A DNA stretch of 64,000 nt from Patescibacteria group bacterium (GTDB lineage Bacteria; Patescibacteriota; JACPGU01), in the NCBI GenBank assembly GCA_028718745.1, contig JAQULF010000003.1:160-64159 (forward strand), written 5' to 3'. Position 1 is the stretch's first letter; the number at the start of each line of letters is the position of its first letter. The notes under the pieces are model-generated. The model worked only from the letters and a program-made list of their open reading frames with translations. It had not been told where the DNA came from and searched no databases. Both the position numbers and the translations under genes were made by a program. Shown here in pieces: positions 6,338 through 44,124 of the stretch.

Positions 6338-8026
6338 TTACATTTTTTCTCTCGCTTCGATTCCCATCAAAGCAAGGCAATCTTTTAAAACGACCTCGGT
6401 CGCTTTTATTATTTTAAGGCGAATAGCTTCTCTCTCATCGCCGATAATTCGGCAATTATCATAAAATTTATGAAATTCAGTCGCAATCTCATGCGCGAAA
6501 AATGGGATTTTATAAACCTGATAATTCTCACCCACTTCTTTAATTAACTCCGGGTATTGGGAAAGTTTTTTAATTAAATTAATTTCGTATTTAAAATTTT
6601 GATTTTGGAGTGACGGACGATAGTCCGTTATCTTTCCTGTGACAGACTTTCGTCTGTCATTCCGATTAATCTTCGAGAGTACGCTATGTATCCTAGCTGA
6701 CGCATACTGAACATAAAATACCGGGTTCCTCGAGCTCTGCTCTTTTGCCAAATCCAAATCTATATCAATATGATGCCCATAATCTTTTGAAATGAAAAAG
6801 TAGCGGGCTGATTCTAAACTCATCTCCTCCGCTGCTTCGCGAAGAGTGATGAAATTCCCCTTTCTCTTGCTCATCCTGACTTCCTTGCCGCCCTGCATGA
6901 GATGAACCAGTTGAAAAATGATTAAATCCAGTTTGCCTTCATGCTTTAAAATTTTTGCGACAGCTTGCAATCTCCCCACATAACCATGATGATCGGCTCC
7001 GAGAAAAATAATAATTTTACCAAATTTTCGTTGTGAGAACCTTTCATAAAGATAAGCGACATCCGACATTAAATAAGTGAAATTACCATCGGTCGTTTTT
7101 ACTACGCGATCTTTTTCGTCGCCATATTCGGAAGTTTTCAACCAATAAGCTCCTTCGTTTTCATAAACCAGATTCTTGGCTTTAAAAAAATCCCACATTT
7201 TATAAACCAGTTTCTCTTTGAAAAGGATTGATTCGGTAAACCAGCGATCAAACTTGATCCCGAGAAACTTTACATCTTTTTTTATAAATTCATCGAGAAT
7301 TATTTTCGCCGCCATCTCTCCTGTTCTCTCATAGTTTCGCCTGATCCATTCAATTCCTTTTTGCTTTTTTATTTTTCGCGCCACTACATCAATATATTCT
7401 CCGCCATAAATGTCTTCGCCTTCCACTGTTTCGATTTCTAAATCCAAATTTTTATAAACTGACTTAGCTAAAATTTTAACCTGATTTCCGGCATCATTCA
7501 CATAATACTCGCGTTTAATATTATAGCCGTTTTTTGCCAAAACATTCGAAAGCGTATCACCGGAAAATCCTCCCCTGCCGTTTCCAAGAGTTAATGGTCC
7601 GGTGGGATTGGCGGAAATGAATTCAACTTGAATTTTCTTCTCCTTGCCGGAATTATTTGAACCATACTTGCTTTTTTCTTTTAAAATGTTGCTTAATTCT
7701 TTCAAATAAACTGATGAATTTAAAAAGAAATTGACATATCCGTCGCAAGCCTCAACTTTTGCGATTTCTTTGGCGGGCGTTAAATTTAACGCCCCTACGA
7801 TTTCGCCGGCGATATCTCTTGGATTTCTTTTTAACTGTTTAGCGAGAATGAACGATATATTCGTCGCAAAATCTCCATACCCCTCCCTCTCCGGCACAGA
7901 AATATCGTATTGATCAATTTCAACTTTGAAAAGTTTTTTGACAACCTTATCGATTTGTTTGCGAAGTAATTCTTTCATGGTATTTTTATAGAGGATCCTT
8001 TCTCCACTTGTCTTTAGCAAATTCAT
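6338..8026 (-). CDS. argS: Arginine--tRNA ligase
   Basis: Class I HIGH-like region SANPTGPLTLGNGRG, Arg-tRNA synthetase core FLGADHHGYVGRL, MSKRKGN (KMSK-like), C-terminal DALR-type anticodon-binding region; contains a 23-aa in-frame insertion encoded by a REPIN-like repeat (see findings). Confidence 0.9.
   Translation of the reverse strand: MNLLKTSGERILYKNTMKELLRKQIDKVVKKLFKVEIDQYDISVPEREGYGDFATNISFILAKQLKRNPRDIAGEIVGALNLTPAKEIAKVEACDGYVNFFLNSSVYLKELSNILKEKSKYGSNNSGKEKKIQVEFISANPTGPLTLGNGRGGFSGDTLSNVLAKNGYNIKREYYVNDAGNQVKILAKSVYKNLDLEIETVEGEDIYGGEYIDVVARKIKKQKGIEWIRRNYERTGEMAAKIILDEFIKKDVKFLGIKFDRWFTESILFKEKLVYKMWDFFKAKNLVYENEGAYWLKTSEYGDEKDRVVKTTDGNFTYLMSDVAYLYERFSQRKFGKIIIFLGADHHGYVGRLQAVAKILKHEGKLDLIIFQLVHLMQGGKEVRMSKRKGNFITLREAAEEMSLESARYFFISKDYGHHIDIDLDLAKEQSSRNPVFYVQYASARIHSVLSKINRNDRRKSVTGKITDYRPSLQNQNFKYEINLIKKLSQYPELIKEVGENYQVYKIPFFAHEIATEFHKFYDNCRIIGDEREAIRLKIIKATEVVLKDCLALMGIEAREKM
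6604..6665. repeat. REPIN-like paired-hairpin palindromic element, copy 1 (inside argS coding sequence, in-frame)
   Basis: tttggagtGACGGACgataGTCCGTta ... tGACAGACtttcGTCTGTCattcc: two hairpins in inverted orientation, same family as copies at 27936, 36685, 37084 and 43165. Confidence 0.7.
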
Positions 8027-8534
8027 TTTGTATTATTACATCTGCATATATTTGGTCGCCATTCTCTATTTTTACATCTGGTCTGGAAATAAGGACATGA
8101 AGATCAACCTTAGAAAGTGGGAGACCGACTAAACTGGCCGCTTTTTGTAATTGATAATTCTCATTATCACGATATCTTTTTATTGCTCCCTCTAACTTAT
8201 CGGTTGGCATATCACCAGGGCTTGAGCCTGCCCCAAAAATCACAACGCCACCGTCTTTTATTTCATCTGGAACAGAAAAGCGCTGGAGCGAATCATAATC
8301 ACTAATCAAGTATCGAGGAATTTTTTGTTGTGAGTATTCCCTGCTCAATCTTTGGCTAAGAGTGGTTTTGCCTACATCCCAATCATGCGATGCCGGTCCC
8401 GCAATAGTAACTACAACAAAGTCTCGCTCGGCAAGAAGTGCTTCGGTTTTTTTAATTATTTGTTCTACGCCCTTTTCAAAAGGATATTCCCTCTTTTCTA
8501 CTATAGGTGTTATTTTTTCTTGAAATTCTTTCAT
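7986..8534 (-). CDS. Hypothetical protein with degenerate P-loop (possible nucleotide kinase-like)
   Basis: VVVTIAGPASHDWDVGKTTL resembles a Walker A with an insertion; overlaps the argS start by 41 nt; no confident family assignment. Confidence 0.35.
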   Translation of the reverse strand: MKEFQEKITPIVEKREYPFEKGVEQIIKKTEALLAERDFVVVTIAGPASHDWDVGKTTLSQRLSREYSQQKIPRYLISDYDSLQRFSVPDEIKDGGVVIFGAGSSPGDMPTDKLEGAIKRYRDNENYQLQKAASLVGLPLSKVDLHVLISRPDVKIENGDQIYADVIIQNEFAKDKWRKDPL

Positions 8535-8815: not shown

Positions 8816-10015
8816 TTAGACTTTTATTTTTACAAACTTCCTCTTCCCCACCTGCACAATCATCCCATCATGAATCCCCAGAACTTCTTTCGAATCTTCT
8901 ATTCTCAAATCGTCAATCCTTACCGCACCTTGTTCAACCAATCTTCTGGCTTCGCTTTTGCTAGTGGCTAATTCCAATTTAAAAACTAAATCTACTATAT
9001 TTATATTTTTATCTGAAATCTTTTTTTCTTCCATATCTTGCGGTTTTTCATGCTCTTGGAATTGTTTGTTGAACACTTCGCCGGCTTTTTCGGCTTTATT
9101 ATGATCATAAAATGCCTCGACAACTTCATGGGCCAATTTGAATTTGATATTGCGCGGATTTTCTCCTTTTTTCATAGCATCCGCAAACATTTTTATTCCT
9201 CCGTCCGGAATATCGGTCAAAAGCTCAAGGCCGGGCAAAATCATTCCATCCGTCCAGCTCATTACCTTGCCAAACATTTCCTCGGGTGAATCAGAAAGCG
9301 CAATAATGTTTCCTTCGGTCTTACCCATTTTCTTTCCTGTCGGATCTTCCAGAAGTTTTGTCGTTATTACAAACTTTTCTTTGTTCAGCATTTTTTTCAT
9401 CAAGGTTCTGCCGGCCAACATGTTGAACATCTGATCATTGCCACCAATTTCACCATCAACATCCATGGTGACAGAATCGTAAGCCTGAAAAACCGGATAT
9501 ACAAATTCATGAAGATAAATTTCTTTTCCTTGCTTGATCCTTTCCTGAAACATATCCCGCTCCAACAATCTTGAAACTGTAAAATGAGACATTAACTCCA
9601 ACATGTCTACCGGCTTTAATTTATTGGTCCATTTCTCGTTATGCAAAAAACGAATATTCGTTTTTTTAAAATCCAAAATCCGGCCGATTAGCTTTTTATA
9701 ATCCTTGGCATTTTCCAAAACCTGTTTTCGGGTTAATTTGACCCTGGTGGCCGTTTTATCCGTTGGATCACCTATTTGGGCGGTAAAATCCCCAATCAAA
9801 ACGATAACTTTGTGTCCGAGATCTTGAAATTCTTTTAACTTTCGCAAAGGAATGGAGTGCCCAATATGAATATCTCCCGTCGGATCAATCCCCATATATA
9901 TGGTTAGTTTTTTCCCAGATCTTAATTTCTCCTCCAAAAACTCTCGGGTGGGAAATATATTTTCCACTCCCCTATTTAATAAATGCTGAATTTTCGCCTC
10001 ATCAATTTTTGCCAT
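8816..10015 (-). CDS. tyrS: Tyrosine--tRNA ligase
   Basis: HIGH motif GIDPTGDIHIGH, KMSKS-like KMGKT, C-terminal S4 domain (RRLVEQGAVRIDD). Confidence 0.9.
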   Translation of the reverse strand: MAKIDEAKIQHLLNRGVENIFPTREFLEEKLRSGKKLTIYMGIDPTGDIHIGHSIPLRKLKEFQDLGHKVIVLIGDFTAQIGDPTDKTATRVKLTRKQVLENAKDYKKLIGRILDFKKTNIRFLHNEKWTNKLKPVDMLELMSHFTVSRLLERDMFQERIKQGKEIYLHEFVYPVFQAYDSVTMDVDGEIGGNDQMFNMLAGRTLMKKMLNKEKFVITTKLLEDPTGKKMGKTEGNIIALSDSPEEMFGKVMSWTDGMILPGLELLTDIPDGGIKMFADAMKKGENPRNIKFKLAHEVVEAFYDHNKAEKAGEVFNKQFQEHEKPQDMEEKKISDKNINIVDLVFKLELATSKSEARRLVEQGAVRIDDLRIEDSKEVLGIHDGMIVQVGKRKFVKIKV

Positions 10016-23648: not shown

Positions 23649-25277
23649 ATGTTTTCTTTATTTGCAAAAAAAGCAATACCGGTTAAAGAAAGAATCACCA
23701 AAAAACCGCATCCGGTTGTTCTAATTATTTTGGACGGTTATGGTATCTCTCCTATTCGCGAAGGAAATGCAGTCTGGAATGCCAATACACCCAATCTGGA
23801 TTCTTACGAAAAAAAATACCCAAAAGCGCTTTTGCATACGGCTGGAAATGAAGTTGGCCTTCCTTATGGTGAATTTGGCAATAGCGAAGTTGGACATTTA
23901 AATATTGGTTCGGGTCGAGTAGTTTATCAGCCATTGCTGCGAGTTTCCAATGAAATTGAAGCTGGAAATTTATATAACAACGAGGCGATGGACGGCATCA
24001 AAAAACATCTTAAAAAAACCGGGGGTGCATTGCATCTGATGGGACTTCTCTCCCCCGGCGGCGTTCATTCTCATATTGAACATCTTTTTGCAATTCTTGA
24101 TTGGTGCAAAGATAACAAAATCAAGAAAATATTTATTCATGTTTTTACCGACGGAAGGGATGCCCCGCAAAAATCCGGCGCGGAATACATAGAAGATTTA
24201 ATTAAAAAAATTGAAGAGCTAAATATCAATGCTCAAATAGCCTCTCTCTCCGGACGATATTTTGCTATGGATAGAGATCGCCACTGGGATAGATTAAAAA
24301 AGGCTTATCAGGCCTGGATTGGAACGGGGAAAAATAGAAACGATAATCCTTCCGATGCAATCACTGAAAGCTACAAAGAGAAAAAAACGGATGAATTTCT
24401 AGATCCCGTTGTTATAACCGATAAAGATGGCAAACCACTGGGGCCAATATCTGGCGGGAATGCTTTATTAATGTTCAACCTTCGTCCGGACAGATCTCGC
24501 CAAACCTTAATGTCTTTTGTAAGCAACTCATTTGGCAGTTTCAAAACTAAAAAAATTGACGATCTTTTTGTGGCAACCTTGACCGAATATGATCCAAAGC
24601 TAAAAGCAAAAGTGGTATTCCCGGAAAAAGATATTAAAAATCCCTTGGGCGAGATATTATCAAAAAAAGGTCTGAAACAATTTCATATTGCCGAAACAGA
24701 AAAATACGCGCATGTCACTTATTTCTTTAACGGCGGCCGAGAAAAACCTTTCAAGGGAGAAACCAGAGTTATAGTCCCTTCGCCTTCTGTTCCAACTTAT
24801 GATAAAAAACCGGAAATGAGCTGTGAAAAAATTGCTATCAGAGTTTTGGAAGAATTGGAAAAAGGAAAAGAAGATTTTTTCGTAATTAATTTTGCCAATG
24901 CCGATATGGTCGGACATACCGGAAATTATAAAGCGATTCTAAAAGCCGTGGAAGCGGTTGATCAATGTGTTGGAAAAATAGTCGAAAAAACTTTGATCCT
25001 TGGCGGAGCAGCAATAATCACAGCCGATCATGGCAATGCCGAAGAAACTATTAATTCTCAATCGAGCGAAAAAGACACGGAACATAATATCTATCCGGCT
25101 CCTTTTATTGTCATCAGCCACGATTTGGAAAATAAAAAAGAAACCTTGAACTTCAAAGAAGCTATTTCCGAACCGATTGGTTCGCTAGCTGACATAGCAC
25201 CAACTATTTTGGATTTAATGGGAATAGAACAACCTACGGATATGACGGGGATAAGTTTGTTGAACAGCTTGAAATAA
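23649..25277 (+). CDS. gpmI: 2,3-bisphosphoglycerate-independent phosphoglycerate mutase
   Basis: HPVVLIILDGYG, GNSEVGHLNIGSGR, LSPGGVHSH, FTDGRD - canonical iPGM motifs. Confidence 0.9.
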   Translation: MFSLFAKKAIPVKERITKKPHPVVLIILDGYGISPIREGNAVWNANTPNLDSYEKKYPKALLHTAGNEVGLPYGEFGNSEVGHLNIGSGRVVYQPLLRVSNEIEAGNLYNNEAMDGIKKHLKKTGGALHLMGLLSPGGVHSHIEHLFAILDWCKDNKIKKIFIHVFTDGRDAPQKSGAEYIEDLIKKIEELNINAQIASLSGRYFAMDRDRHWDRLKKAYQAWIGTGKNRNDNPSDAITESYKEKKTDEFLDPVVITDKDGKPLGPISGGNALLMFNLRPDRSRQTLMSFVSNSFGSFKTKKIDDLFVATLTEYDPKLKAKVVFPEKDIKNPLGEILSKKGLKQFHIAETEKYAHVTYFFNGGREKPFKGETRVIVPSPSVPTYDKKPEMSCEKIAIRVLEELEKGKEDFFVINFANADMVGHTGNYKAILKAVEAVDQCVGKIVEKTLILGGAAIITADHGNAEETINSQSSEKDTEHNIYPAPFIVISHDLENKKETLNFKEAISEPIGSLADIAPTILDLMGIEQPTDMTGISLLNSLK

Positions 25278-25389
25278 AAGATAAAATATAAAAAATAAAA
25301 AACAAGAATTAAAAACTTAAAAATAGATTTATTTTTGCATATTTAAGTATTTGTTTTTTATCTTTTATTTTTAATTTTTTATATTTCTA

Positions 25390-27516
25390 ATGAAATCCAA
25401 CATTTTCTCTCCCAAAAGTATCGCCATCATCGGTGCTTCTCCTCACAAAAAGAAGCTTGGTTTTCAAGTTTTAAAAAATGTTATCGATGGCGGATACAAA
25501 GGGAAAATTTATCCAATTAACATTGATCCATCTATCCGTCATATTCAGTCTCATAAATCTTATTCTTCTGTCCTAAAAGTCCCAGGCAAAATCGACATGG
25601 CAGTATTTGTCATCCCGGCCAAATTTGTTCCCCAAGCTCTACAAGAATGTGGGAAGAAAAAAATAAAATTGGCTGTAATAATTTCTGCAGGTTTCAAAGA
25701 AGTTGGCGGTGAGGGCGTTGAACTTGAAAAACAGATTTTGAAAATCGCCAAAAAATCCGGAATAAGAATATTGGGGCCGAATTGCCTTGGTTTTATAAAT
25801 ACTAAAATAAAATTGAACGCTTCTTTTGCCCCTTCAATGCCTTCTGATGGAAATGTTGCAGTGGTATCCCAATCAGGTGCAATTTGTACTGCGATTCTGG
25901 ATTGGGCAAGCAAAAACCACATTGGTTTCTCAAAATTTTTCTCTTTGGGCAATAAATCTGATATCACAGAATTAGACCTTCTCCCCTATTTGGCCTCCGA
26001 CAAACAAACGAGCGTGATAACATCTTATCTTGAAAATGTTGCCGGAAATAATGGCGGTGATGATTTTCGAGGAGTAGCCGAAAAAACTACCCTCAAAAAA
26101 CCAGTCGTAATTTTGAAGGCTGGAATCAGCGAGAAGGGTGCCGCCGCAATTTCATCGCACACTGGATCGCTTGCCGGATCAAATCAAGCTATCTCATCTC
26201 TTTTTAAGCAGAGTGGGGTTATTCGCGCTAATTCTCTTGAAGATCTTTTCGATTATGCAGAAGCTTTTTCTTTGTTGAAAGCTCCAACCGGAAATCGCGT
26301 TGCAATTATTACCAATGCCGGCGGACCGGGAGTTATGACTACGGATGCGATTGAGGGGACAAAATTAGAATTGGCAACTTTAACAAATGAAACCCAAGAG
26401 AAGCTAAAAAAAGTTTTGCCACCGGCGGCGAATATTCACAATCCTATTGACCTCGTTGGAGATGCTGATGATCTTCGCTACAAAAACGCTTTAAACATTA
26501 TTGAAACGGATAAAAATGTTGATTCAATTTTAGTTTTATTAACACCCCAGACTTCCACAAAAATAGAAGCTACCGCTGAATTAGTTTTAAAGAAAATAAA
26601 GAAAAGTAGTAAAACAATTATTCCAATTTTTATGGGAGGCAAAAGAGCTAATCATGGCATTGATATTTTTGAGAAAAATCATTCTGCAGTTTTCGAATAT
26701 CCCGAGCGCGCCGTTAAAGCTTTGGAAAAAATATCTTTCTGCCAATCGTGTGAGATGGGAATACGAAAAATCTACCCACCCAAGATTTTAAAAATAAAAA
26801 AATCAAGGAAAAATAAAGTTAACAAAATTATTGTAGGGGCACGGCGTGCCGTGCCCGAAAATCAACCCACCTTAATTGCTGGTTCAACCGCTGATGAGAT
26901 TTTAAAACAATATGATATTCCGATTTTGAAATCTTCTCTCGCAAAAGCGAGAAGTGAAGCAATCAAAAAAAGTAAAAAAATCGGCTTTCCCGTTGTTTTT
27001 AAAATTGATTCTCCCGATATCATCCATAAAAGCGATGTGGGCGGAGTAATCGTCGGAATAAAAAATGAAAAAGAAGCCGGCGTCGCTTTTTCAAAAATAA
27101 TGTCAAATATAAAAAGGAATGCTCCTCGCGCCAAAATCAATGGCATTATGATTTATGAAATGGTATCCCTTGGAATTGAATTTTTTATCGGAGCAAAAAG
27201 AGACCCGACTTATGGCCCTTTAGTTGGTTTTGGGTTGGGCGGTGTTTTCGTAGAGATTCTCAAAGATGTTTCTTTCCGCCTCGCTCCCCTATCTTACTTT
27301 GACATTGATAAAATGATTGGAGAATTAAAATCTGCAAAAATAATTTCCGGCGCTCGCGGTAAAGGTTCACTGGACAAAAAAGGTATCGTTGATGCGCTAA
27401 TTAAAGTTTCCAATCTCATGATCAACCACCCACAAATTTCTGAACTTGATATCAACCCCCTAGCAGTTTTTGAAAATCGCGTTGTGGCGGTAGATAATCG
27501 GTTAATTATTTTGTAG
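25390..27516 (+). CDS. Acetyl-CoA synthetase (ADP-forming), fused alpha/beta subunits
   Basis: N-terminal CoA-binding (SIAIIGASPHKKKLGFQV), succinyl-CoA-synthetase-like ligase-CoA domain, C-terminal ATP-grasp; ~700 aa as in archaeal/CPR Acd. Confidence 0.85.
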   Translation: MKSNIFSPKSIAIIGASPHKKKLGFQVLKNVIDGGYKGKIYPINIDPSIRHIQSHKSYSSVLKVPGKIDMAVFVIPAKFVPQALQECGKKKIKLAVIISAGFKEVGGEGVELEKQILKIAKKSGIRILGPNCLGFINTKIKLNASFAPSMPSDGNVAVVSQSGAICTAILDWASKNHIGFSKFFSLGNKSDITELDLLPYLASDKQTSVITSYLENVAGNNGGDDFRGVAEKTTLKKPVVILKAGISEKGAAAISSHTGSLAGSNQAISSLFKQSGVIRANSLEDLFDYAEAFSLLKAPTGNRVAIITNAGGPGVMTTDAIEGTKLELATLTNETQEKLKKVLPPAANIHNPIDLVGDADDLRYKNALNIIETDKNVDSILVLLTPQTSTKIEATAELVLKKIKKSSKTIIPIFMGGKRANHGIDIFEKNHSAVFEYPERAVKALEKISFCQSCEMGIRKIYPPKILKIKKSRKNKVNKIIVGARRAVPENQPTLIAGSTADEILKQYDIPILKSSLAKARSEAIKKSKKIGFPVVFKIDSPDIIHKSDVGGVIVGIKNEKEAGVAFSKIMSNIKRNAPRAKINGIMIYEMVSLGIEFFIGAKRDPTYGPLVGFGLGGVFVEILKDVSFRLAPLSYFDIDKMIGELKSAKIISGARGKGSLDKKGIVDALIKVSNLMINHPQISELDINPLAVFENRVVAVDNRLIIL

Positions 27517-27609: not shown

Positions 27610-27935
27610 ACCCCCTCCCATTTTTTTTCTTCTTCTTTTCTTTTTTTCTCGATTCGGCGGATCCTATTTCCCCTTCTGCGCGCCGCTCTTATTTCTTCAT
27701 TTGTCAGAAGACGCCCCTTCCTTTTCACTTCTTCTTCCGGATACAGGCTTTTCGGTAAAAAAGATGCTCTTTCCACCGGAACCATTCTTCTCCATGAGCG
27801 CTGGTATCTGTTTATTTCTGCCGCTCTCATTTCCCCTGCTTTTGCAAGTGCAGAATTTCTCTTCAAATCACTCACCTCCTTTGTTAAATGACATTTTTTC
27901 TTATTCTATCAAAAAAATATATTTATATCAAATCT

Positions 27936-27997
27936 TTGGAATGACGAACGATAGTTCGTTAATTTGAAAATGACAGACTATCGTCTGTCACTCCAAA
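27936..27997. repeat. REPIN-like paired-hairpin palindromic element, copy 2 (intergenic, downstream of recJ)
   Basis: tttggaatGACGAACgataGTTCGTtaa ... aaTGACAGACtatcGTCTGTCActccaaa. Confidence 0.7.
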
Positions 27998-28049
27998 CTC
28001 AAATAAAAAAACATTTGCTATTTGACATTATAATTTAAAACTTAGAAAT

Positions 28050-29621
28050 TTATTTTAGGTCTTCTATTTTCAATTCCAGCGTCCGCCTGCTCCCCCAAAC
28101 ATTCTCCGTAATTTTATAGACCACATCTATATCTTTTCCGTAATAAAATTGGTCCCCCATTTCTCCGTGGTTGAAAAGGATGGCGGAAAATTCTACACCG
28201 TCTTTAATTAATTTTAATTTTGTATGAGTATTTTCTTTGCCCACTTTTTTCGCTTCTTTTACTTTGACGCCATGAGTAATGAATATCGGTTCGGGATTTT
28301 TATCACCGAATGGCTCGAATTTTTTAATCTCATCAAATAATTTTTTTGTAATATCCTTAAATTCAATTTCTTTTTCTATATTGAGAAATGAAATCAGATC
28401 TTCGTCCTTTAATTTTCCCTCTCCATATTGAGATACCTGCGTTTGGAAAAGTTCATAGTCCTCTGTTTTCAAAGAAAATCCGCCCGCACCTTTGTGTCCA
28501 CCATAATTAATAAATATCTTTTCAAAAATCGAGAGCGTTTCTATGACATTAAATTCTACATCTGAACGAACCGAACCTTTAATTAGATCTTTATCTTGAG
28601 ACATGGCAAATACCGGCCGGGAAAATTCCCCTGAAATTCTTCCGGCAATTAATCCGATAATCCCCGAAGACCATTTTTCATCTTTTAATAAAATTATTTT
28701 TTCAATTTCTTTTTTCTTATATTCCGATTTAATGCTATCAACTATTTTTGAAACCACTTCTTGCCTTTCGCGATTTAGTTTTTCCAGCCGCATCGCCAAC
28801 ACTCCCGCTTCCCCCTCATCACGAGTTAAAAGTAATTCAAGGGCGAGGGCCGCGTGCGCCATTCTACCGGCAGCGTTAAGCCGGGGGGCGATTTGGTAAC
28901 CAATCATGTAGGGATTAGAGTTTTTTAAATCTACCTCGGCAACTTTTTCCAAAGCCTTTAATCCGGTATTGCGAGTCTTGGCCAAAACCACCAAACCAAA
29001 ATGCGCGATGATTCTGTTTTCGCCAAGCAACGGAACAATATCGGAAACTGTTCCCAAAGCAACCAGATCCAAATACCATTTTAAATATCCTTCTGAAATA
29101 ACCTCTTTTTTTCTTTTTTTATTTATCGCGATCACCAATGCATGAGCGAGTTTGAAAGCCACCCCTACTCCGGCCAGATCCCTAAAGGAATATGTATCGT
29201 CGCTTCTTTTAGGATTTATCACAGCCACCGCATTGGGCAAAACCTTTGGCGCCTCATGATGATCGGTAACAATAATATCAATCCCTTTTTTCTTGGCGTA
29301 AACTATTTCGTCTTTATTGCTAATGCCATTATCAACTGTAATAATTAAACCTGTTTTTTTGTTGGCAAGAAAATCAATTGCTTTTTTATTTAATCCATAG
29401 CCTTCCTGCATTCTGTGGGGAATATAGAAGCTGACATTCGCTCTCGCCCCGCCTCTTGCAGGCGGGGTTAACTTTTCCAAAATTCCATAGACAACTGCAG
29501 TAGCGGTAATGCCGTCCACATCATAGTCGCCAAAGACTACGATATTTTCTTCTTTTTCAATTGCTTGGAGAATGCGTTTAACCGCTTTATCCATATCTTT
29601 GAGTAAATACGGATCCCCCAT
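28050..29621 (-). CDS. recJ: Single-stranded-DNA-specific exonuclease RecJ (DHH family)
   Basis: DHH motifs FGDYDVDGITA and IVTDHHEAP, DHHA1 region with GGHKGAGG. Confidence 0.85.
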   Translation of the reverse strand: MGDPYLLKDMDKAVKRILQAIEKEENIVVFGDYDVDGITATAVVYGILEKLTPPARGGARANVSFYIPHRMQEGYGLNKKAIDFLANKKTGLIITVDNGISNKDEIVYAKKKGIDIIVTDHHEAPKVLPNAVAVINPKRSDDTYSFRDLAGVGVAFKLAHALVIAINKKRKKEVISEGYLKWYLDLVALGTVSDIVPLLGENRIIAHFGLVVLAKTRNTGLKALEKVAEVDLKNSNPYMIGYQIAPRLNAAGRMAHAALALELLLTRDEGEAGVLAMRLEKLNRERQEVVSKIVDSIKSEYKKKEIEKIILLKDEKWSSGIIGLIAGRISGEFSRPVFAMSQDKDLIKGSVRSDVEFNVIETLSIFEKIFINYGGHKGAGGFSLKTEDYELFQTQVSQYGEGKLKDEDLISFLNIEKEIEFKDITKKLFDEIKKFEPFGDKNPEPIFITHGVKVKEAKKVGKENTHTKLKLIKDGVEFSAILFNHGEMGDQFYYGKDIDVVYKITENVWGSRRTLELKIEDLK

Positions 29622-29845: not shown

Positions 29846-29900
29846 TACTTACTACTTACTACTTACTACTTACTACTTACTACTTACTATTTACTACTTC
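29846..29900. repeat. Heptanucleotide satellite (TACTTAC)x6 + 2 degenerate units abutting the ftsQ stop codon
   Basis: tacttac x6 (29846-29887), then tatttac tacttc; on the mRNA strand this is (GTAAGTA)n beginning with the TAG stop. Confidence 0.8.
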
Positions 29901-30790
29901 ACTATCACTCTTCCATTCACCGACAAGATCACATATTCCGTAATCTTTTCTCCTTGTTGAAAAACTTTGGATAACTTATCCAATTGCTCAACTACATCAG
30001 CTCCGGTATCAAAAACTATATAGAAGCCGCTATTTACATGCGCTTTCAATTCGAAGGTTGTTTGGTTGATGCTGTAGATTGTAATCCCAAGGCCAAATCT
30101 TTTTTTCAAACTCTCATCTACTACATTAACGAAATCGATAAATTCTTTGGTAACAATGCGATCTCCAACTTTTACAGGTAATCCCGCCTGATCAATTATG
30201 GTGGGCATTTTTAAATCTTCCTTCATGTCAGACATAACATAACCATTATTGTCTAGAAGATATTTGCTTTCCCCCACTTGCCAAATAATAGTACTGGGTT
30301 TTTCTTGTATTTTGATTTTTAATTTCGATGGAAACACTTTGTAAACTCTGACATCATCTATTCTTTTGTAATAATCCAGCAATACATTTTTTACCTGGCT
30401 GGTATTAAGCAAAAAAAGATTTTTATTGTTGATGTTTCTTTCTTCAAGAAACTTAACTATATCTCCCTCCAATAATATCTGATTATTTACCACGACTATC
30501 TTTTTTATCTTAAAAACTTCCGAGAAAAGCAAAACATAAGCGATACCGGCTAAGCAAAGTAAAACAAAAAGTATTTTCCAGTATGGAATGTAAAGTTTTT
30601 TTTCTGGTCGGCCAAAAACCTCGTTGGCATAATGTTTGGGAACGCTTTTACCTTTGCGAGATTTGAGATGAAAAGATAATCCAAATCTTTTTTGTTTGGC
30701 ACCCTTGTAAATATCTACTCGCTGTTTTCTGGTAATCTGGTTTTTGTTTCTCCGTCGGAACATTTTATTATCCCTCCAAAAACTTTTCAC
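29894..30790 (-). CDS. ftsQ: Cell division protein FtsQ/DivIB-like (TM + POTRA)
   Basis: Basic N-tail, single TM (ILFVLLCLAGIAYVLLF), POTRA-like region, position at end of dcw cluster after murC. Confidence 0.6.
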   Translation of the reverse strand: MKSFWRDNKMFRRRNKNQITRKQRVDIYKGAKQKRFGLSFHLKSRKGKSVPKHYANEVFGRPEKKLYIPYWKILFVLLCLAGIAYVLLFSEVFKIKKIVVVNNQILLEGDIVKFLEERNINNKNLFLLNTSQVKNVLLDYYKRIDDVRVYKVFPSKLKIKIQEKPSTIIWQVGESKYLLDNNGYVMSDMKEDLKMPTIIDQAGLPVKVGDRIVTKEFIDFVNVVDESLKKRFGLGITIYSINQTTFELKAHVNSGFYIVFDTGADVVEQLDKLSKVFQQGEKITEYVILSVNGRVIVK

Positions 30791-32310: not shown

Positions 32311-32345
32311 TACTTACTACTTACTACTTACTACTTACTACTTAC
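32311..32345. repeat. Heptanucleotide satellite (TACTTAC)x5 overlapping the murG stop and last codons
   Basis: tacttac x5 at 32311-32345; encodes ...SK* of MurG then continues into the murG-murC spacer. Confidence 0.8.
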
Positions 32346-33480
32346 TACCCGCTACCATTCCCAATATCTCCTCGGCTATAATATGCGCGCTATTTTCCGG
32401 AAAAATGTTTTTCATATTTTTTACCATAGAGTCTCTCGTTTTCTTGTCTTTCATCAAAAAATCTATTTCTTCATATAGTTTTTCAGCGGTTAAAAGATTT
32501 TCGTCCAATACTGATGCGATTTCATTTTTCTGTAGAAATTTTGCATTCTTGTTTTGATGATCGGCAGCGGCAGATGATAAGGGAATCAAAATCGCCGGTT
32601 TTTTTAAAGCAACAATCTCTGCAATTGAATTTGCCCCGGCGCGACTTACAACCAAATCGGTATTATTCAAAAAATCTTTTAGCTCTTCTTTCGCGTAACC
32701 AAACTCCAAATATCTTTCTCGTTCCGGCTTGCTTAATAATGAACGCTTATCCCTGAAGTATTCTTCATTATTTTTTCCGGTTTGGTGAATAAGATTGTAG
32801 TTGGCAAGAATTTTATTTAACAATTCATCGATCAATTCATTAATTCTTCCCGAACCTTGGCTTCCTCCCAAAACAAAAATAATTTTTTTTGTTTTATCTA
32901 AACCGTATTGTTGAAAAAAGTTTTTCTTATCGCTTTTTATATTCAGAAGTTCTTTTCTTACCGGATTTCCGCTAAAATAAGTTTTCTTTATAGAAATTCC
33001 CTTGTAGATATCAACCGGAAAACCAAGATAGACTTTCTTAGCAAATGGCAAAAGTATTTTATTGGATAATCCTATTACAGAATCCGATTCATGAATAACA
33101 AAAGGTATTCGCAATAATGCAGCTGCCAAGCAAAAAGGTACAGTGACAAACCCTCCCTTGGCAAAAATAATATCTGGTCGATTAAATAACAAGATAAAAA
33201 AAGATTGAACAAATCCAATCAACATCAAAAAAATATCGCTGAAGTTTTTTATGTCAAAATATCTTCGAAGCTTTCCCGTAAAAATGCCCTTATATCTCAA
33301 GCCGTATGTCCCGATCAATTCTTGCTCAATGCCATGTCGGCGGCCTATATACAAAAAATCAACGCTAACATTTTTAGCTTTGGATATTTTTACCAGCTCA
33401 TCAATGATCGCAAGATTGGGAGCCACATGACCGGCCGTCCCACCACCTACGAAGATTATTTTAAAATGTTTTTCTTCCAT
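32338..33480 (-). CDS. murG: UDP-N-acetylglucosamine--N-acetylmuramyl-(pentapeptide) pyrophosphoryl-undecaprenol N-acetylglucosamine transferase
   Basis: FVGGGTAGHVAPNLAI (G-loop), GT28 C-terminal GGSQGS. Confidence 0.9.
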   Translation of the reverse strand: MEEKHFKIIFVGGGTAGHVAPNLAIIDELVKISKAKNVSVDFLYIGRRHGIEQELIGTYGLRYKGIFTGKLRRYFDIKNFSDIFLMLIGFVQSFFILLFNRPDIIFAKGGFVTVPFCLAAALLRIPFVIHESDSVIGLSNKILLPFAKKVYLGFPVDIYKGISIKKTYFSGNPVRKELLNIKSDKKNFFQQYGLDKTKKIIFVLGGSQGSGRINELIDELLNKILANYNLIHQTGKNNEEYFRDKRSLLSKPERERYLEFGYAKEELKDFLNNTDLVVSRAGANSIAEIVALKKPAILIPLSSAAADHQNKNAKFLQKNEIASVLDENLLTAEKLYEEIDFLMKDKKTRDSMVKNMKNIFPENSAHIIAEEILGMVAGSK

Positions 33481-34708: not shown

Positions 34709-36064
34709 TTATTTCAACTTGTTAACCTCTTTGATAAACCTCTTACCTCGATCAAACTCATTGATAAATAAATTGAAACTTGCTCCTCCGGGAGAGAGTA
34801 GTATCGTATCTCCTTTTTTACTTAAAGAATAAGCTTTTTTAACCGCTTCTTTCATATTTTCAACTTCAAAAATATTTTCCGCCTTATAATCAAAACTAAA
34901 TTTCTCTTTTATTTTATCAGAAAATGATCCCGGAAGCAGCACTGTTTTTAGATTGCGCGTCTCAATTTTTTCTGCCAACTCATCTACATCCCCCCCAAAC
35001 ATTTTGTCCACTCCGCCCAAAATCAAAATCGGTTTTTTGAATTCTTCCAAAGCAAAGTTAACTGCGGAAGGATGAGTAGCGGTTGTATCATTTATAAAAG
35101 TTCTACCTTTAATTTTTGCGACTGACTCTTTCCTACCTTCTAGTCCCTTAAAATCTCTAATCACTTTTTTGATATCGGCATTTTCTATCCCAAATATTTT
35201 GGCGAATTTAAACAAAGCGTCATCATTCGTTCCGTCAAAAAATACTTTTTTGCTTTTTGCGTCCTTAATGATCTTCTGTAGTTTCTTGTTAGTAATTAAA
35301 ATATCATTCTTTTTTTGGAATCGATAAATATCTCTTTTTGCTTCAATATAGTTTTCGTATGAAAAATGGAAAGAAATATGTTCCGGATAGATATTTGTAA
35401 TCACTGCGACATCCGGACTTCGCTTTGCATATCTCGCGTGGTGAAGTTGAGCCGATGATAATTCCAAAACCACGATTGATTTCTCATCCGCTTCTTCCAA
35501 ACAATCAAAAACTGATTTGCGTATATTTCCTCCAAAAAAAACTTTGTTAAAAATTGTTGGTTCGGTGGCTTTGTCCCCGAACCTTACCAAAAGTCCGCCT
35601 TTTTTATCAATCCGACTTTTTATCAAATCAAAAATCATCGCTGTCACGGTCGACTTGCCTTTGGTCCCTGTAATTCCAATTTTAAATGAAGGTGAATTTT
35701 CAAAAAATATCCCAATATCATTTTCTACCTTTACTCCGGCTTTCTGCGCAACGCGTAAAAAATCGCTATCGTCTTTTACTCCCGGATTGCGAATAACAAA
35801 ATTGGAATTGGTAAAATATTTTTCCAAATGCTCGCCCAATCGAAATGTAATTTTTTTACCCCGCCCTGGCGGGGTTAACTTTGCAACCGAGCTTTTTAAT
35901 TCCTTTTCACTTTTTGTATCAGTAACTAAAACCTTGGCGCCTAGTTTTGCAAAAAACTTCGCCGTTCCAACTCCCCCTCCATGCAAACCCAAACCCCAGA
36001 CCAAAACTTTTTTGCCTTTATACTTTTTTTCTAGGTTTTTTGTAATATCATTTTTTGATTTCAT
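34709..36064 (-). CDS. murD: UDP-N-acetylmuramoylalanine--D-glutamate ligase
   Basis: KVLVWGLGLHGGGVGTAKFFAKLGAKVLVTD Rossmann N-terminus, GTKGKST P-loop; contains GC-palindrome-encoded KLTPPGRG insertion. Confidence 0.9.
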   Translation of the reverse strand: MKSKNDITKNLEKKYKGKKVLVWGLGLHGGGVGTAKFFAKLGAKVLVTDTKSEKELKSSVAKLTPPGRGKKITFRLGEHLEKYFTNSNFVIRNPGVKDDSDFLRVAQKAGVKVENDIGIFFENSPSFKIGITGTKGKSTVTAMIFDLIKSRIDKKGGLLVRFGDKATEPTIFNKVFFGGNIRKSVFDCLEEADEKSIVVLELSSAQLHHARYAKRSPDVAVITNIYPEHISFHFSYENYIEAKRDIYRFQKKNDILITNKKLQKIIKDAKSKKVFFDGTNDDALFKFAKIFGIENADIKKVIRDFKGLEGRKESVAKIKGRTFINDTTATHPSAVNFALEEFKKPILILGGVDKMFGGDVDELAEKIETRNLKTVLLPGSFSDKIKEKFSFDYKAENIFEVENMKEAVKKAYSLSKKGDTILLSPGGASFNLFINEFDRGKRFIKEVNKLK

Positions 36065-36652: not shown

Positions 36653-36684
36653 AAATTTTATTTTAATTCTTTTTTCATTTTATT

Positions 36685-36756
36685 TGACAAACTATCGTTT
36701 GTCACTCCAAAATTCATGATTATCGCATTTGGAATGACGGACGACAGTCCGTTATC
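36685..36756. repeat. REPIN-like paired-hairpin palindromic element, copy 3 (intergenic, immediately downstream of RAYT gene)
   Basis: tGACAAACtatcGTTTGTCActccaaa - 16-nt spacer - tttggaatGACGGACgacaGTCCGTtatc. Confidence 0.7.
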
Positions 36757-36767
36757 TTTTCTTAATT

Positions 36768-37394
36768 TTAATCTTCTATATTTATATCATTCGCGGGATA
36801 ATAATAAAAGCAATCAAACAAAAAATCTTTTCCTCTTTTTGTTAGCCAATGCTTGTAACTGCAAAAATTAAAATTTTCCAATTCCTCAAAATTTTTTACC
36901 AAACCGTGCTTTATTGGATTTTGGTGAATATAATTGAATATCTTAAAGAAATCTCGTTCGCCTCTTATGCAATAATCCCAATACTGATAAAATACTTTTC
37001 TTCCCTCACAATCGTCCATCTTATTTAAAACTCTCGCAATCGAAGAATTCAAACGATTTGCGAAATAGGAAATCTTTTTTTGTTTGACAGCCTTACGGCT
37101 GTCATTCCAAGGATTTTCTAAAAAATCTAGCATACCACTGTTTGTATTTGGAGTGACACCCGTGAGGGTGTCGTCCTCAATAGAGTTTAACTTTAGCAAC
37201 AAATGATAATGGTTTTTCATTATCGCAAAAGCATAAAGTGAAATTCCTAATTCTTTAATTAAGTTGTTAATTATGTTTAAAATTATTCCCTCTCTTCCGG
37301 AAAAATAATTTTTCTTTTCAAAACACCTTGTTGTTAAAAAATAAACTTCATTTTCTAATTCTAAATGAAACGGCCTGTGCTTATTTGATTTCAT
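36768..37394 (-). CDS. IS200/IS605-family Y1 (HUH) transposase, REP-associated tyrosine transposase (RAYT)-like
   Basis: HUH motif NHYHLLL; C-terminal catalytic-Tyr motif NYIHQNPIKHGLV (YIxxNPVkaGLV of Y1_Tnp); HUH-to-Tyr spacing inflated by ~33 aa that are encoded by a REPIN-like element (37084-37176). Confidence 0.7.
   Translation of the reverse strand: MKSNKHRPFHLELENEVYFLTTRCFEKKNYFSGREGIILNIINNLIKELGISLYAFAIMKNHYHLLLKLNSIEDDTLTGVTPNTNSGMLDFLENPWNDSRKAVKQKKISYFANRLNSSIARVLNKMDDCEGRKVFYQYWDYCIRGERDFFKIFNYIHQNPIKHGLVKNFEELENFNFCSYKHWLTKRGKDFLFDCFYYYPANDINIED
37084..37176. repeat. REPIN-like paired-hairpin element, copy 4 (variant with compensatory stem changes), in-frame inside the RAYT gene
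   Basis: ttGACAGCCttacGGCTGTCattccaagg ... tttggagtGACACCCgtgaGGGTGTCgtc; conserved flanks TTGACAG...GTCATTCCAA and TTTGGAGTGAC...GTC. Confidence 0.55.
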
Positions 37395-38431: not shown

Positions 38432-38548
38432 AGTATAAAAAATTAAAAATAAAATATAAAAAATAAATATTTAAATACATAAAAACAAAAATATTTTTAA
38501 ATTTTTAATTTGTGTTTTTTATTTTTGATATTTTATTTTTTTATATTC

Positions 38549-40861: not shown

Positions 40862-40896
40862 CTTAATACTTAATACTTACTACTTACTACTTAACC
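40862..40896. repeat. Heptanucleotide satellite (CTTAATA)x2-(CTTACTA)x2-CTTAACC abutting the ftsI stop
   Basis: Same unit family (phase-shifted TACTTAC) as at 29846 and 32311. Confidence 0.75.
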
Positions 40897-42665
40897 AAAC
40901 CCTTCTCTCTTTTTATCTGCTCTTCCTTCCAAACATCATCCGGTGGTATCTGGTAATAATTCAAAATATTCGCCGCTAATTCTCCGAATATAGGAGCTGC
41001 CGTAGATTCCGCCCAGATTACATCGCGAGGTACATTAATTCTGGTTACAATCACAAAAAGCGGATTATCGGTCGGGCCAAAACCAATAAAGGAACCGATA
41101 AATTTATCTGTTTCGTATCCTCGAAAATCTTTCTTGGGAATCTGCGCCGTACCGGTTTTACCACCAATTCTGTAGCCCTTTACTCGAGCTTGTTTCCCAT
41201 GGCCTCTCTCGGCAACACTAATCATCATATCCGTTATTTCATGGGCTGACTTTTCGCTTAAAACTCTGCCGATCACTTGCGGCTCTACTTTTTCTACTTT
41301 ACCATTTTTATCAATATATTCTTTTACAATATGTGGTTTTACCATCAACCCCCCATTTGCCACCGCGCCCATAGATTGCGCCAACTGAACCTCGGTTGTG
41401 TTAATACCCTGGCCAAAAGACATTGTCGCCAAATCAACCGGTATAGCATCTTCTTGAGGCTTCACGGCGCCCGGAGATTCACCGTCAATTTCAATCCCCG
41501 TTCTTTTGCCAAAACCAAAATTATTTATATATTTATAAAAATTATCCGTACCGGTTTTTTGCGTCATCCAAACCATTCCCACATTATCAGAGTTTTCCAA
41601 AACTTGAGTCATAGTCTCATAACCATAGGGTCTCTTGACACTATTCCAAATAACCGCATCCTGAACCTGAACTTTGGCATCAAAATATTCTCCCGTATCC
41701 GGCGTTACCGCTCCGCTATCGATACCGGCTGTCATCGCGATTAATTTAAAAACCGATCCCGGTTCATAAGCATCGGCTGTCGCCATACATTGGAAAACGC
41801 TATAATCTTTAACTTCCGTATATTTTGCCGGTTCATAAGTTGGAAATTCGGCTAGAGCCAGGATTCCGCCGCTTTTGGGGTCCATCACCACGATTGAGCC
41901 GCTATCCGCTTTATGCTGTTCAACCGCTCTGGCAATAATATCTTCTGCGTAATACTGAATTACATGGTCAATCGTAAGAACTACATCTTTACCATTTTTA
42001 GGTAGCACAACTTTACTATCAGCCACTGTTATCTGGCGACCCAAAATATCTCTTTCGGAAATCAATTTGCCCTGCTCTCCCTTGAGAACATCATTCAAAT
42101 ATCCCTCAACTCCATATTGTCCCTCTCCTTGATTATCGACAAAACCAAGAAACTTTGCCCCCATACTCCCTTCCGGGTAATCCCTGTAGGTTTCGGGAAT
42201 CAAAACAACTCCAGGCAGCTTCAAATCCTCAATCTTTTTGCTAATCTCATCGCTTAGCTTCCTTTTTAAGGGCGGAATATAAACTTTTTTTTCAGAGAGT
42301 AATTGATTGATTTCTCCGGCTGGCATGTCAATTATCGGACCCAGCTTACTAGCTAAGTCAGCCGCATCTTCCACTTGATTAGGAATTATCATTACCGACC
42401 AGAGAGTTTTATTAGTTACTAGGGGAAATTTGGTATCGCTATATATATCGGTAACAAATATCTCCCCTCTGGCCGGCATTATCTTTTCTTCTTTGTATCT
42501 TTGATTGTAGGCTAGCTCTTGGTAGTGGGAATATTTGATAATTTGTTTTTCAAAAAGACGAACTCCGATTATCCCAAAAAGCCCCATCACAACAATAAAA
42601 ACGATAAATATTCTCGCTTTTATATTCCCCTGCTCTTCAATTCTTATATTATTACTCCCCCACAT
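40887..42665 (-). CDS. ftsI: Class B penicillin-binding protein (FtsI/PBP2-type transpeptidase)
   Basis: N-terminal TM, SxxK (GSVFKL), SDN (ENSDNVG), KTGT; dcw synteny. Confidence 0.85.
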   Translation of the reverse strand: MWGSNNIRIEEQGNIKARIFIVFIVVMGLFGIIGVRLFEKQIIKYSHYQELAYNQRYKEEKIMPARGEIFVTDIYSDTKFPLVTNKTLWSVMIIPNQVEDAADLASKLGPIIDMPAGEINQLLSEKKVYIPPLKRKLSDEISKKIEDLKLPGVVLIPETYRDYPEGSMGAKFLGFVDNQGEGQYGVEGYLNDVLKGEQGKLISERDILGRQITVADSKVVLPKNGKDVVLTIDHVIQYYAEDIIARAVEQHKADSGSIVVMDPKSGGILALAEFPTYEPAKYTEVKDYSVFQCMATADAYEPGSVFKLIAMTAGIDSGAVTPDTGEYFDAKVQVQDAVIWNSVKRPYGYETMTQVLENSDNVGMVWMTQKTGTDNFYKYINNFGFGKRTGIEIDGESPGAVKPQEDAIPVDLATMSFGQGINTTEVQLAQSMGAVANGGLMVKPHIVKEYIDKNGKVEKVEPQVIGRVLSEKSAHEITDMMISVAERGHGKQARVKGYRIGGKTGTAQIPKKDFRGYETDKFIGSFIGFGPTDNPLFVIVTRINVPRDVIWAESTAAPIFGELAANILNYYQIPPDDVWKEEQIKREKGLVK

Positions 42666-42789: not shown

Positions 42790-43149
42790 TTATTTCTTGG
42801 CCAACGCTCCTCCATTGCCGCTAAAATATTTTAAGTCTTTAACCGGTACCATTGATAATCCTCCCGCTTTCTCCTTGGCCTTGTTTAGCGATTCCAATCT
42901 CGCCGCCTCTACCTGCAATCTCTCATTTTCCGAAACAACCTTGTCTTCTTGTTGTTGAAGTTCCTGCAAGGCATATCCTTTGGTCGTAATCTGATTGGAT
43001 TGAGCCAAGTAAAATAGACTGATCAATGAAAATATAAGAACTGTCACAAATCCCAAGGCAACCGGGCCAAGTCTTAATCCCTTTCTGGAATAGGTAGAAT
43101 TATATCTGCCAATCCCGCTCTTTTTTCTTTTAAATCTTATAAATTTCAT
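42790..43149 (-). CDS. ftsL: FtsL/DivIC-like septum formation protein
   Basis: Single TM then coiled coil (QELQQQEDKVVSENERLQVEAARLESLNKAKEK); positioned between rsmH and ftsI. Confidence 0.5.
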   Translation of the reverse strand: MKFIRFKRKKSGIGRYNSTYSRKGLRLGPVALGFVTVLIFSLISLFYLAQSNQITTKGYALQELQQQEDKVVSENERLQVEAARLESLNKAKEKAGGLSMVPVKDLKYFSGNGGALAKK

Positions 43150-43164
43150 TTTTGTTTTTTATTT

Positions 43165-43235
43165 TAGACAGACTGTCGTCTGTCATTCCAAAATTCAGGA
43201 TTAGCATTTGGAGTGACGGACGATAGTCCGTTATG
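43165..43235. repeat. REPIN-like paired-hairpin palindromic element, copy 5 (ftsL-rsmH spacer)
   Basis: taGACAGACtgtcGTCTGTCattccaaa - 12-nt spacer - tttggagtGACGGACgataGTCCGTtatg. Confidence 0.7.
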
Positions 43236-43248
43236 TTTTTAAAATTTC

Positions 43249-44124
43249 TTACCCTCTTTCTGCAATACGCATCTTCGCGCTCCTACTCATCGGATTGGTA
43301 ACCTCTTCAGCTCTTCCCGCTATAATCACTTTTTTGTTTATAATTTTTAATAATCCTTGTCTCGCGCTTTCTCTCAAAAAGTTTTTTACAATCCTATCTT
43401 CTCCGGAATGAAATGATATGACTACTAATCTTCCGCCTTTTTCTAAAATCTTTAAACTGTTTGTTAATGCTTTCTTTAAATTTTCCAGCTCATTATTTAC
43501 TTCTATTCGCAAAGCCATGAAGGTTAAAGTTGCCGGATGGATTTTGCCTCTTTGAAACTTTACTGATTTAACTATGTCGGCAAGCTCCATAGTGGTCTCT
43601 ATTCTTTTTTTCCTGCGCGCTTCCGTAATTGCCTTAGCGATTACCCGGGCAAATCTCTCATCTACGGTTTTAAGTATTTTCTCAAGCTCTTCTCTGGTAT
43701 ATGAATTGACCACTTTCTCTGCCGTCAAACTACCGTTTAAGTCTAACCGCATATCCAATTTCTCATTTTTTAAAAAGGAAAAACCTCTCCCACTTTCCTT
43801 TATTTGAAATAAATTCGTCCCCAAGTCGAATACAATTCCAGCGACTTGGTCCAACTTAAATGAAAGAGCGATGCGATCAACATCGACGAAATTACCGTTA
43901 TATAAAGATAGGTTTTTATAAGATTTAAATGTATTCTTTGCGTGATCATATATCCCCTTGTCTACTTCTATGCCAATTATCTGACCCTTGAAGTTTTTTT
44001 TATTTAATATCTCTTTCGTATGCCCCCCGAAACCAAATGTGGCATCTATGTAGGTACCGCCTTCTTTTACATTCAATGCGTCAACGGCTTCCTGAAGCAA
44101 TACGGTTTTATGAAGTGCTTCCAT
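43249..44124 (-). CDS. rsmH: 16S rRNA (cytosine1402-N4)-methyltransferase RsmH (MraW)
   Basis: YIDATFGFGGHTKEIL SAM-binding motif, SFHSGEDRIVK; dcw synteny after mraZ. Confidence 0.9.
   Translation of the reverse strand: MEALHKTVLLQEAVDALNVKEGGTYIDATFGFGGHTKEILNKKNFKGQIIGIEVDKGIYDHAKNTFKSYKNLSLYNGNFVDVDRIALSFKLDQVAGIVFDLGTNLFQIKESGRGFSFLKNEKLDMRLDLNGSLTAEKVVNSYTREELEKILKTVDERFARVIAKAITEARRKKRIETTMELADIVKSVKFQRGKIHPATLTFMALRIEVNNELENLKKALTNSLKILEKGGRLVVISFHSGEDRIVKNFLRESARQGLLKIINKKVIIAGRAEEVTNPMSRSAKMRIAERG

Follow-up and report, generated by a model that had tools for sequence, protein, structure and literature searches.

A REPIN-like palindromic doublet in frame within argS, coding for arginyl-tRNA synthetase, in a Patescibacteria group bacterium

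Results

A palindromic doublet inside the argS reading frame

We analysed a stretch of 64,000 nucleotides from an uncultured Patescibacteria group bacterium (contig JAQULF010000003.1 of assembly GCA_028718745.1), hereafter the window, in which the gene of arginine--tRNA ligase, argS, contains two inverted repetitive extragenic palindromic (REP) units read in frame with the protein. Units of the same family are found elsewhere in the window, also next to a gene for a REP-associated tyrosine transposase (RAYT). The argS copy is very probably a selfish REP doublet that the gene tolerates, a passenger insertion filtered by selection, because its 63 nt equal 21 codons, its sole open frame is the one used by argS, and its site is a permissive surface loop of variable length.

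As the original prediction had proposed, a two-hairpin element lies wholly inside the minus-strand open reading frame (ORF) of ArgS, where positions 6604-6665 read TTTGGAGTGACGGACGATAGTCCGTTATCTTTCCTGTGACAGACTTTCGTCTGTCATTCCGA and the two hairpins are GACGGAC-gata-GTCCGT(T) and TGACAGAC-tttc-GTCTGTCA. The paired-hairpin description stands, while the length of 62 nt given at first does not: comparison with the other copies extends the element by 1 nt (Table 1). The doublet runs from the second position of codon 454 to the first position of codon 475 and codes for R455-Q474 plus parts of N454 and N475; the peptide encoded by this segment is, as had been stated, INRNDRRKSVTGKITDYRPSLQN. Read through argS, unit 1 is antisense and gives ...ITDYRPSLQ, and unit 2 is in sense and gives RNDRRKSV.

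The reading frame is indeed kept open by the element, as was claimed for it. Only one of the six frames of the doublet lacks stop codons, whereas stops interrupt every frame of its intergenic twin at 27935. In the frame of argS, the loop GATA, the commonest in the family, would be read as CGA-TAG and would terminate translation, whereas the GAAA of the argS copy is read as CGA-AAG; loop variants of the family with GACA are likewise open in this frame. Unit 2, which carries this GAAA loop (GATA is found in 4 of the other 9 units), is the lowest-scoring of the 10 units in the window, and its head has 2 mismatches. Unit 1 shares 28 consecutive identical nt with the copy at 43207-43234, an identity that marks the argS copy, as far as sequence can tell, as recent or homogenised. 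Over its whole length the doublet is identical to the intergenic doublet 27935-27997 at 49 of 63 positions, these two being the only tail-to-tail doublets seen.

Folding of the element was also evaluated. As RNA, it reaches -25.3 kcal/mol (z = -4.6 vs shuffles) and its minimum-energy fold is one long hairpin, while as DNA it folds as two hairpins at -13.8 kcal/mol (z = -4.5 vs shuffles). Two inverted REPs, a short spacer and the capacity to form one long hairpin are the features by which REPINs (REP doublets forming hairpins) are recognised, and the argS doublet has all of them.

The gene itself looks sound. Its product matches, with 100% identity, an arginine--tRNA ligase entry of NCBI from a "Patescibacteria group bacterium" metagenome-assembled genome (MAG), and all three Pfam domains of ArgRS are intact despite the doublet. 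In an alignment with the closest homologues (21 sequences), every residue invariant in the family is present in the window ArgS, and there are no stops in frame. Moreover, argS is flanked by a convergent gene of about 750 aa, a synteny found also in relatives. The ArgS protein is presumably made and active. Its true start is probably M17 and not the start of the listed ORF, because all orthologues begin at the equivalent MKE/DLL. The listed start (window 7976-8026) lies 16 codons upstream of that of the orthologues and overlaps the upstream ORF 7986..8534.

A structural model of ArgS was computed with AlphaFold2 (AF2), using the orthologue alignment as input. It has the ArgRS fold with a mean predicted local distance difference test score (pLDDT) of 86.6, and its top 20 PDB matches are all ArgRS. 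Residues 1-13 are below pLDDT 50. The insertion, which had been suggested for modelling as a surface loop, falls in a low-confidence coil (residues 456-475, with 459-474 below pLDDT 50) bounded by helix 435-455 and by helix 476-489, with which the anticodon-binding domain opens, and outside this loop the model is confident. The closest solved structure, ArgRS of C. jejuni (3FNR), has 9 fewer residues at the linker.

Table 1. Positions of argS, the RAYT gene and the REP elements in the window.
Feature	Position	Strand	Basis and remarks
argS (arginine--tRNA ligase)	6338..8026	minus	ORF list, 562 aa; Pfam Arg_tRNA_synt_N, tRNA-synt_1d, DALR_1
Whole REP doublet in argS	6604..6666	none	63 nt, tail-to-tail, heads outward; comparison with other copies
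REP unit 1 (TTTGGAGTGAC-GGAC-GATA-GTCC-GTTA)	6603..6633	plus	Covariance model 45.2 bits, E 8.6e-9
REP unit 2 (aTCGGAATGAC-AGAC-GAAA-GTCT-GTCA)	6637..6667	minus	Covariance model 36.4 bits, E ~1e-6
Intergenic tail-to-tail REP doublet, 63 nt	27934..27998	none	Between convergent ORFs 25390..27516(+) and 28050..29621(-)
Head-to-head REP doublet directly downstream of RAYT gene	36682..36757	none	Covariance model
RAYT-type gene (REP-associated tyrosine transposase, HUH/Y1)	36768..37394	minus	Pfam Y1_Tnp PF01797; NCBIfam NF047646
Head-to-head REP doublet in frame inside RAYT gene	37082..37176	none	Covariance model; 33-aa gap vs L077 RAYT
Head-to-head REP doublet	43163..43236	none	99-nt spacer of co-directional ORFs 42790..43149(-) and 43249..44124(-)

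The REP family of the window

The REPIN-like reading of the argS element implied a family, and a family is present. A covariance model trained on 31 units from the window and from metagenome contigs, run without filters, recovered exactly 10 units in the window with 36-45 bits, the next match having 13.8 bits. All 10 are arranged as inverted doublets, 2 tail-to-tail (63 nt each) and 3 head-to-head; two of the five doublets are inside genes (argS; 37082-37176) and the remaining three are intergenic. Simple hairpin patterns gave a similar picture, with 4-5 matches in the window vs 0.00 expected.

Each unit of about 28-31 nt is composed of the head TTTGGARTGAC, three variable stem positions, C, a loop of the form GNNA, G, the three nt that pair with the variable ones, and GTYA. 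In the head, GGA and TGAC are invariant; TGAC belongs to the stem and pairs with GTYA, giving an 8-bp stem closed by a 4-nt loop. The units of the argS element have in this way the short imperfect palindrome and the stem-loop expected of REPs. The stems vary among copies (GGAC, AGAC, GAAC, AAAC, AGCC, ACCC) and yet remain complementary. Among the 31 units 99% of the cells are paired, but this value is circular, as the units had been pre-selected for the 3 variable pairs. A metagenome scan with the six stem positions left free found all three pairs complementary in 22 of 36 matches (35 loci), against a chance expectation of 1 in 64.

The unpaired GTAG or CGTC tag that characterizes the REP super-families of Di Nocera 2013 is lacking in the window family. 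The latter looks like a divergent relative of GTAG-type REPs, because a related RAYT locus of the candidate phyla radiation (CPR), L083, uses a GTAG-type REP, GGAGTAGCGAAAT... No Rfam family covers the element, and the sole Rfam match in the window is one tRNA. The strict pattern of the REP unit had no match in GTDB representatives or in JGI metagenome contigs, where the source genome and its closest kin are absent. A protein-database search with a 53-aa concatenate of REP-encoded peptides returned no candidate for further in-frame copies. In L068, L073 and L077, REPs lie under apparently long open frames, but these were rejected as intragenic cases, being N-terminal extensions or spurious ORFs.

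A head-to-head doublet pattern, GTCAYTCCAAA...TTTGGARTGAC, is present at 35 loci in GTDB, none of them in Patescibacteria and most of them in Hyphomicrobiales and gut Firmicutes/Bacteroidota. It recurs many times in several Hyphomicrobiales and Aestuariivirga MAGs (L010-L012, L014, L018-L022, L027, L028, L030, L035, L038, L041, L042). This distribution suggests that the repeats of Alphaproteobacteria with the same terminal motif are an unrelated or convergent family.

The RAYT gene and its association with the REPs

The association with a RAYT, also part of the original prediction, was borne out by the window gene and by its homologues. Two motifs of IS200-like Y1 transposases are present in the protein, the HUH motif as NHYHLL and the tyrosine motif as YIHQNP. 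Once its insert (described below) is removed, its only NCBIfam match is NF047646 REP_Tyr_transpos, with 77.8 bits and E 7e-22 against a cut-off of 80; the homologue L077, with the same REPs on either side of its gene, reaches 84 bits with the same family. Homologues are numerous (1279 at E <= 0.001). H62, Y63, H64 and Y155 are invariant in an alignment of 19 homologues; in one of 21 sequences H64 and Y155 remain invariant, and H62 and Y63 almost. The HUH motif and the catalytic tyrosine are set in a Y1_Tnp fold, modelled by AF2 with a mean pLDDT of 80.

One REP doublet stands just past the stop codon of the window RAYT and another inside the gene. In metagenome contigs, RAYT genes are likewise accompanied by GGARTGAC-tagged units, on both sides in L077 and L080 and on the downstream side in L078. 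The RAYTs of L078 and L080 are, respectively, 75% and 73% identical in amino acids to that of the window in the 19-homologue alignment. The gene downstream of the L078 RAYT is a Mur ligase 70% identical to the product of window ORF 34709..36064, and therefore the RAYT sits at a conserved chromosomal locus. A cognate RAYT flanked by the same REPs is what REPINs have, and "RAYT-associated REP/REPIN-like element" is, judged from these sequence features, a justified term for the argS doublet.

The linker in orthologous ArgS proteins

We compared the site of the doublet with ArgS homologues at three levels: the alignment of the 21 closest, the linker length over 120 ArgS proteins of Patescibacteria, and the DNA of six orthologues with 64-84% protein identity. 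The alignment is conserved up to ...QYASARI(H/N)SVLSK and again from ...YE(I/L)xLIKKLSQYPE, and what lies between cannot be aligned and varies in length. The element is not in the DNA of the six argS orthologues, nor its peptide in any of the 120 proteins, and the covariance model found no REP unit in 66 kb around the six orthologous genes. These comparisons exclude, for the orthologues examined, an ancestral segment with conserved amino acids, the case that would have refuted the original prediction.

The original prediction also held that some 23 residues had been added where other ArgS proteins have a short linker, and this part has to be abandoned. From K452 to E481 the linker of the window ArgS has 28 aa, within the range of 15-39 aa (modes 18 and 22) of the 120 relatives. 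The REP doublet makes up most of the linker, and the ancestral linker has been largely lost or replaced, because only 7 aa remain when the 21 REP-coded residues are subtracted, under the family minimum of 15.

The linkers of the orthologues hold low-complexity DNA of other kinds, namely a 14-nt tandem duplication in L001 and AATCCCAAA-type repeats in L002, L004 and L006. The conserved 3' junction of the site, CAAAAT(T/A)TTAAATACGAA, is common to the window and L002. The latter repeats encode KSQIPNPKQI...NDQN (L002 6320-6380; L006 1355-1410; L004 argS linker), and stretches resembling "KFQIPNSK" were seen in other CPR proteins, the ArgS of L082 and an aminotransferase of L077. A repeat family common to the AATCCCAAA-type blocks and the window was considered and was not supported. 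The conversion of short repeats to coding sequence may be a general feature of these genomes.

REPs inside RAYT genes

The second in-frame doublet of the window, 37082-37176, shows that the GGARTGAC family can persist within reading frames. It adds about 32 aa (DDTLTGVTPNTNSGMLDFLENPWNDSRKAVK) directly after the HUH strand of the RAYT. The AF2 model shows a loop of low confidence here, with residues 72-89 of the RAYT under pLDDT 50; strand 62-68 precedes it and helix 107-126 follows. REP units were found at the same post-HUH site in L078 (806-836 and 852-882) and in L080 (944-974, the site spanning 944-1017), where the insert peptides ...SVTPN... and WND(G/K)(R/K)QSV are translations of the REP head and stem. 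The stems of the inserts differ among RAYT homologues but still pair, and some units are decaying.

Inserts at this place recur. Both anchor motifs were located in 190 RAYT homologues, and 41 of these (about 20%) have an excess of 15-70 residues between HUH and YQYWD, in most cases directly behind HUH. Moreover, the more distant CPR RAYT of L083 (P0290) has arrays of its GTAG-type REPs on both sides (GGAGTAGCGAAAT...ATTTCGC), and its insert is made of the same REPs, in frame and at the same post-HUH site (coordinates of the GTAG-type REPs: 9790-9990, 10202-10351, 10660-10915). No description of REPs inside RAYT genes was found in the searchable literature.

A rather doubtful extension is that REP doublets in this lineage are retained in genes and not merely tolerated, with the RAYT insert possibly serving as a cis-acting device. 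Such a device could, for example, provide transposase self-recognition, or autoregulation through a REP in its own gene or mRNA. If true, the argS copy would be one more case of REP DNA recruited as a coding linker. The recurrent insertion of REPs in RAYT genes also offers a testable lead on the interplay of the transposase with its own locus.

Other repeats in the window

Repeats of other kinds were also seen. The heptamer TACTTAC, which reads GTAAGTA on the minus strand, is repeated 5-8 times in tandem at 29846-29904, 32311-32348 and 40860-40894, at or just past the stop codons of the minus-strand genes 29894..30790, 32338..33480 and 40887..42665; read by eye, the heptamer repeat on the minus strand has TAA/TAG stops in its reading frames. 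A very AT-rich inverted repeat pair of 108 nt (25276-25383 / 38434-38541), 87% complementary and 13 kb apart, has arms that are each internally palindromic with an A/T-rich periodicity of 7 nt. Several families of long diverged direct repeats, of 100-180 nt and 60-86% identity, are found at about 50600-59800 of the window and indicate a putative cluster of paralogous or internally repetitive large genes.

Discussion

Arrival of the doublet in argS

The explanation that we prefer is that a non-autonomous, REPIN-like REP doublet, belonging to a REP/RAYT system of Patescibacteria, entered the hypervariable argS linker by landing there or by recombination. This linker joins the final helix of the catalytic body to the first DALR anticodon-binding helix. 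The RAYT would have mobilised it by HUH/Y1 cleavage of single-stranded DNA at hairpin plus tag. Most of the ancestral linker would have been lost with the doublet or after its arrival, and the copy would persist as a passenger, neutral or nearly so. Permissive length, frame and site are what selection would leave of random insertions in an essential gene.

Several points weigh against this explanation. We did not find an empty-site allele of the same species (the ArgS cluster has 1 member, and the next relative is 82-84% identical), and the limits of the insertion, its timing and the lack of a target duplication are accordingly tentative. The normal length of the linker is not accounted for by insertion alone, so that an accompanying deletion or a recombinational replacement is needed. 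Only 64 kb of the genome are covered, and a second argS copy is possible. Finally, the window RAYT is just under the NCBIfam cut-off and is itself interrupted.

The need for a replacement leads to a variant of the same explanation that differs only in the mode of arrival, in which recombination or gene conversion, and not transposition, put a REP copy in the place of low-complexity linker DNA. We regard this mode as the less likely one, though with a real share of the probability. It would account for the normal total length of a linker that would otherwise keep 7 aa against a minimum of 15 in 120 relatives. The DNA itself gives some indications: the linkers of relatives end in ...CCAATGAC followed by CAAAAT, which resembles the REP head GGAATGAC; the AATCCCAAA-type repeats of L002, L004 and L006 end in C(C/T)AATGAC right before the conserved CAAAAT..TACGAA junction; and CGGAATGAC stands in the window at the opposite edge of the element. 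On the contrary, the motif common to linkers and REP head has only 6-8 nt in AT-rich, low-complexity DNA, where chance is possible, the closest orthologue L001 has a different linker that lacks this motif, and there is no intermediate allele.

Whether by transposition or by recombination, the doublet may in principle owe its retention to some benefit: it could be a linker peptide under selection, a structure in mRNA or DNA that tunes argS expression (by a translational pause between the domains or through mRNA stability) or a RAYT binding site. Both argS hairpins are fully paired, unit 1 is the best-scoring unit in the window, the mRNA strand folds with the low energy reported above, and analogous internal REPs are kept in the RAYT genes of the window, L078 and L080. 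Nevertheless, intact hairpins are equally expected of a young copy, the element is private to one sequence and lacking in relatives at 64-84% identity, the linker is unconstrained in sequence across the family and the peptide is predicted to be disordered; a useful function of the argS copy is accordingly improbable.

We also considered an artefact, either an assembly mis-join at the repeat or a decaying argS pseudogene. The source is a MAG contig and repeats can confuse assemblers. However, a 63-nt repeat is shorter than typical reads, the argS sequence is colinear and in frame on both sides with no stops, the three domains and all invariant residues are present, the AF2 model is confident outside the loop and the synteny with relatives is kept, all of which makes an artefact very improbable. 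An origin of the repeat family from this segment, taken as ancestral ArgS sequence, deserves practically no credence, as the encoded peptide is missing from all 120 homologues, no REP unit is present in the six orthologue DNAs, and the same unit is found in intergenic DNA of the window and beside RAYT genes in many unrelated low-GC metagenome contigs.

Comparison with known systems

The passenger insertion that we propose has precedents, and the original prediction that in-frame behaviour is unusual for a RAYT-associated element was overstated. Intragenic REPs with GTAG or CGTC tags have been catalogued in several species, and over half of them occur as dimers or groups with a coding capacity of 20-30 aa (Di Nocera, De Gregorio & Rocco 2013, PMC3733652). 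Genes of tRNA synthetases are among those affected, one being that of the beta subunit of glycyl-tRNA synthetase in X. oryzae, and the in-frame inserts were argued to be neutral on account of their place in flexible linkers or loops (PMC3733652). The argS doublet is like them in being in frame in a housekeeping gene and in the range of 20-30 aa; it differs in its tag, its phylum and its gene, and in forming most of an inter-domain linker and not a mere extension.

With the REP/REPIN-RAYT systems (REP/BIME, bacterial interspersed mosaic elements, with TnpA-REP in E. coli; REPINs in Pseudomonas; Bertels & Rainey 2011, PMC3116915) the window family shares short imperfect palindromes with a conserved 5' tag, units that are mostly paired in inverted doublets with the capacity for one long hairpin and that are scattered chiefly over intergenic sites, and a RAYT (HUH/Y1) gene that is flanked by the same units and matches NF047646. 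The RAYT is at one conserved locus in two lineages, as in those systems, which fits vertical inheritance. The differences are the host, a member of Patescibacteria, the tag GGARTGAC in place of an unpaired GTAG, and the position of 2 of the 5 doublets in frame inside genes, one being the RAYT gene itself.

In-frame fusions by intragenic MITEs (transposable elements of the miniature inverted-repeat type) have been described as "not unusual", with the Rickettsia palindromic elements (RPEs) as the extreme (2024 review, PMC10969869). RPEs have about 150 bp, each encodes a conserved peptide, and they occupy essential genes in frame, at places where the protein can still fold (PMC10969869). The argS element is similarly a palindromic repeat in frame in an essential gene at a fold-compatible site. 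It is set apart from RPEs, as these are described, by its 63 nt, its two REP units of 28-31 nt, its link to a RAYT and its host in Patescibacteria. RPEs are not known to have a dedicated transposase.

MITEs have terminal inverted repeats and target-site duplications that result from DDE transposases. The argS element, by contrast, has no evident duplication, and its partner enzyme is an HUH tyrosine transposase. Its resemblance to bacterial MITEs (ERIC, BOX, Correia and others; PMC10969869) consists in being a small non-autonomous repeat that occasionally lies inside an ORF without breaking it.

We found no paper in the literature on REP/RAYT in Patescibacteria or CPR, and no report of the head motif GGARTGAC. 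In-frame REP insertion is an established phenomenon, and what is new here is the host phylum, the tag GGARTGAC and the gene.

In conclusion, the argS doublet provides a clean example of how selfish palindromic DNA can come to code for part of an essential enzyme. With it the range of REP/RAYT systems grows to include Patescibacteria, whose genomes are reduced, and annotators should expect REP-derived peptides in CPR proteins.

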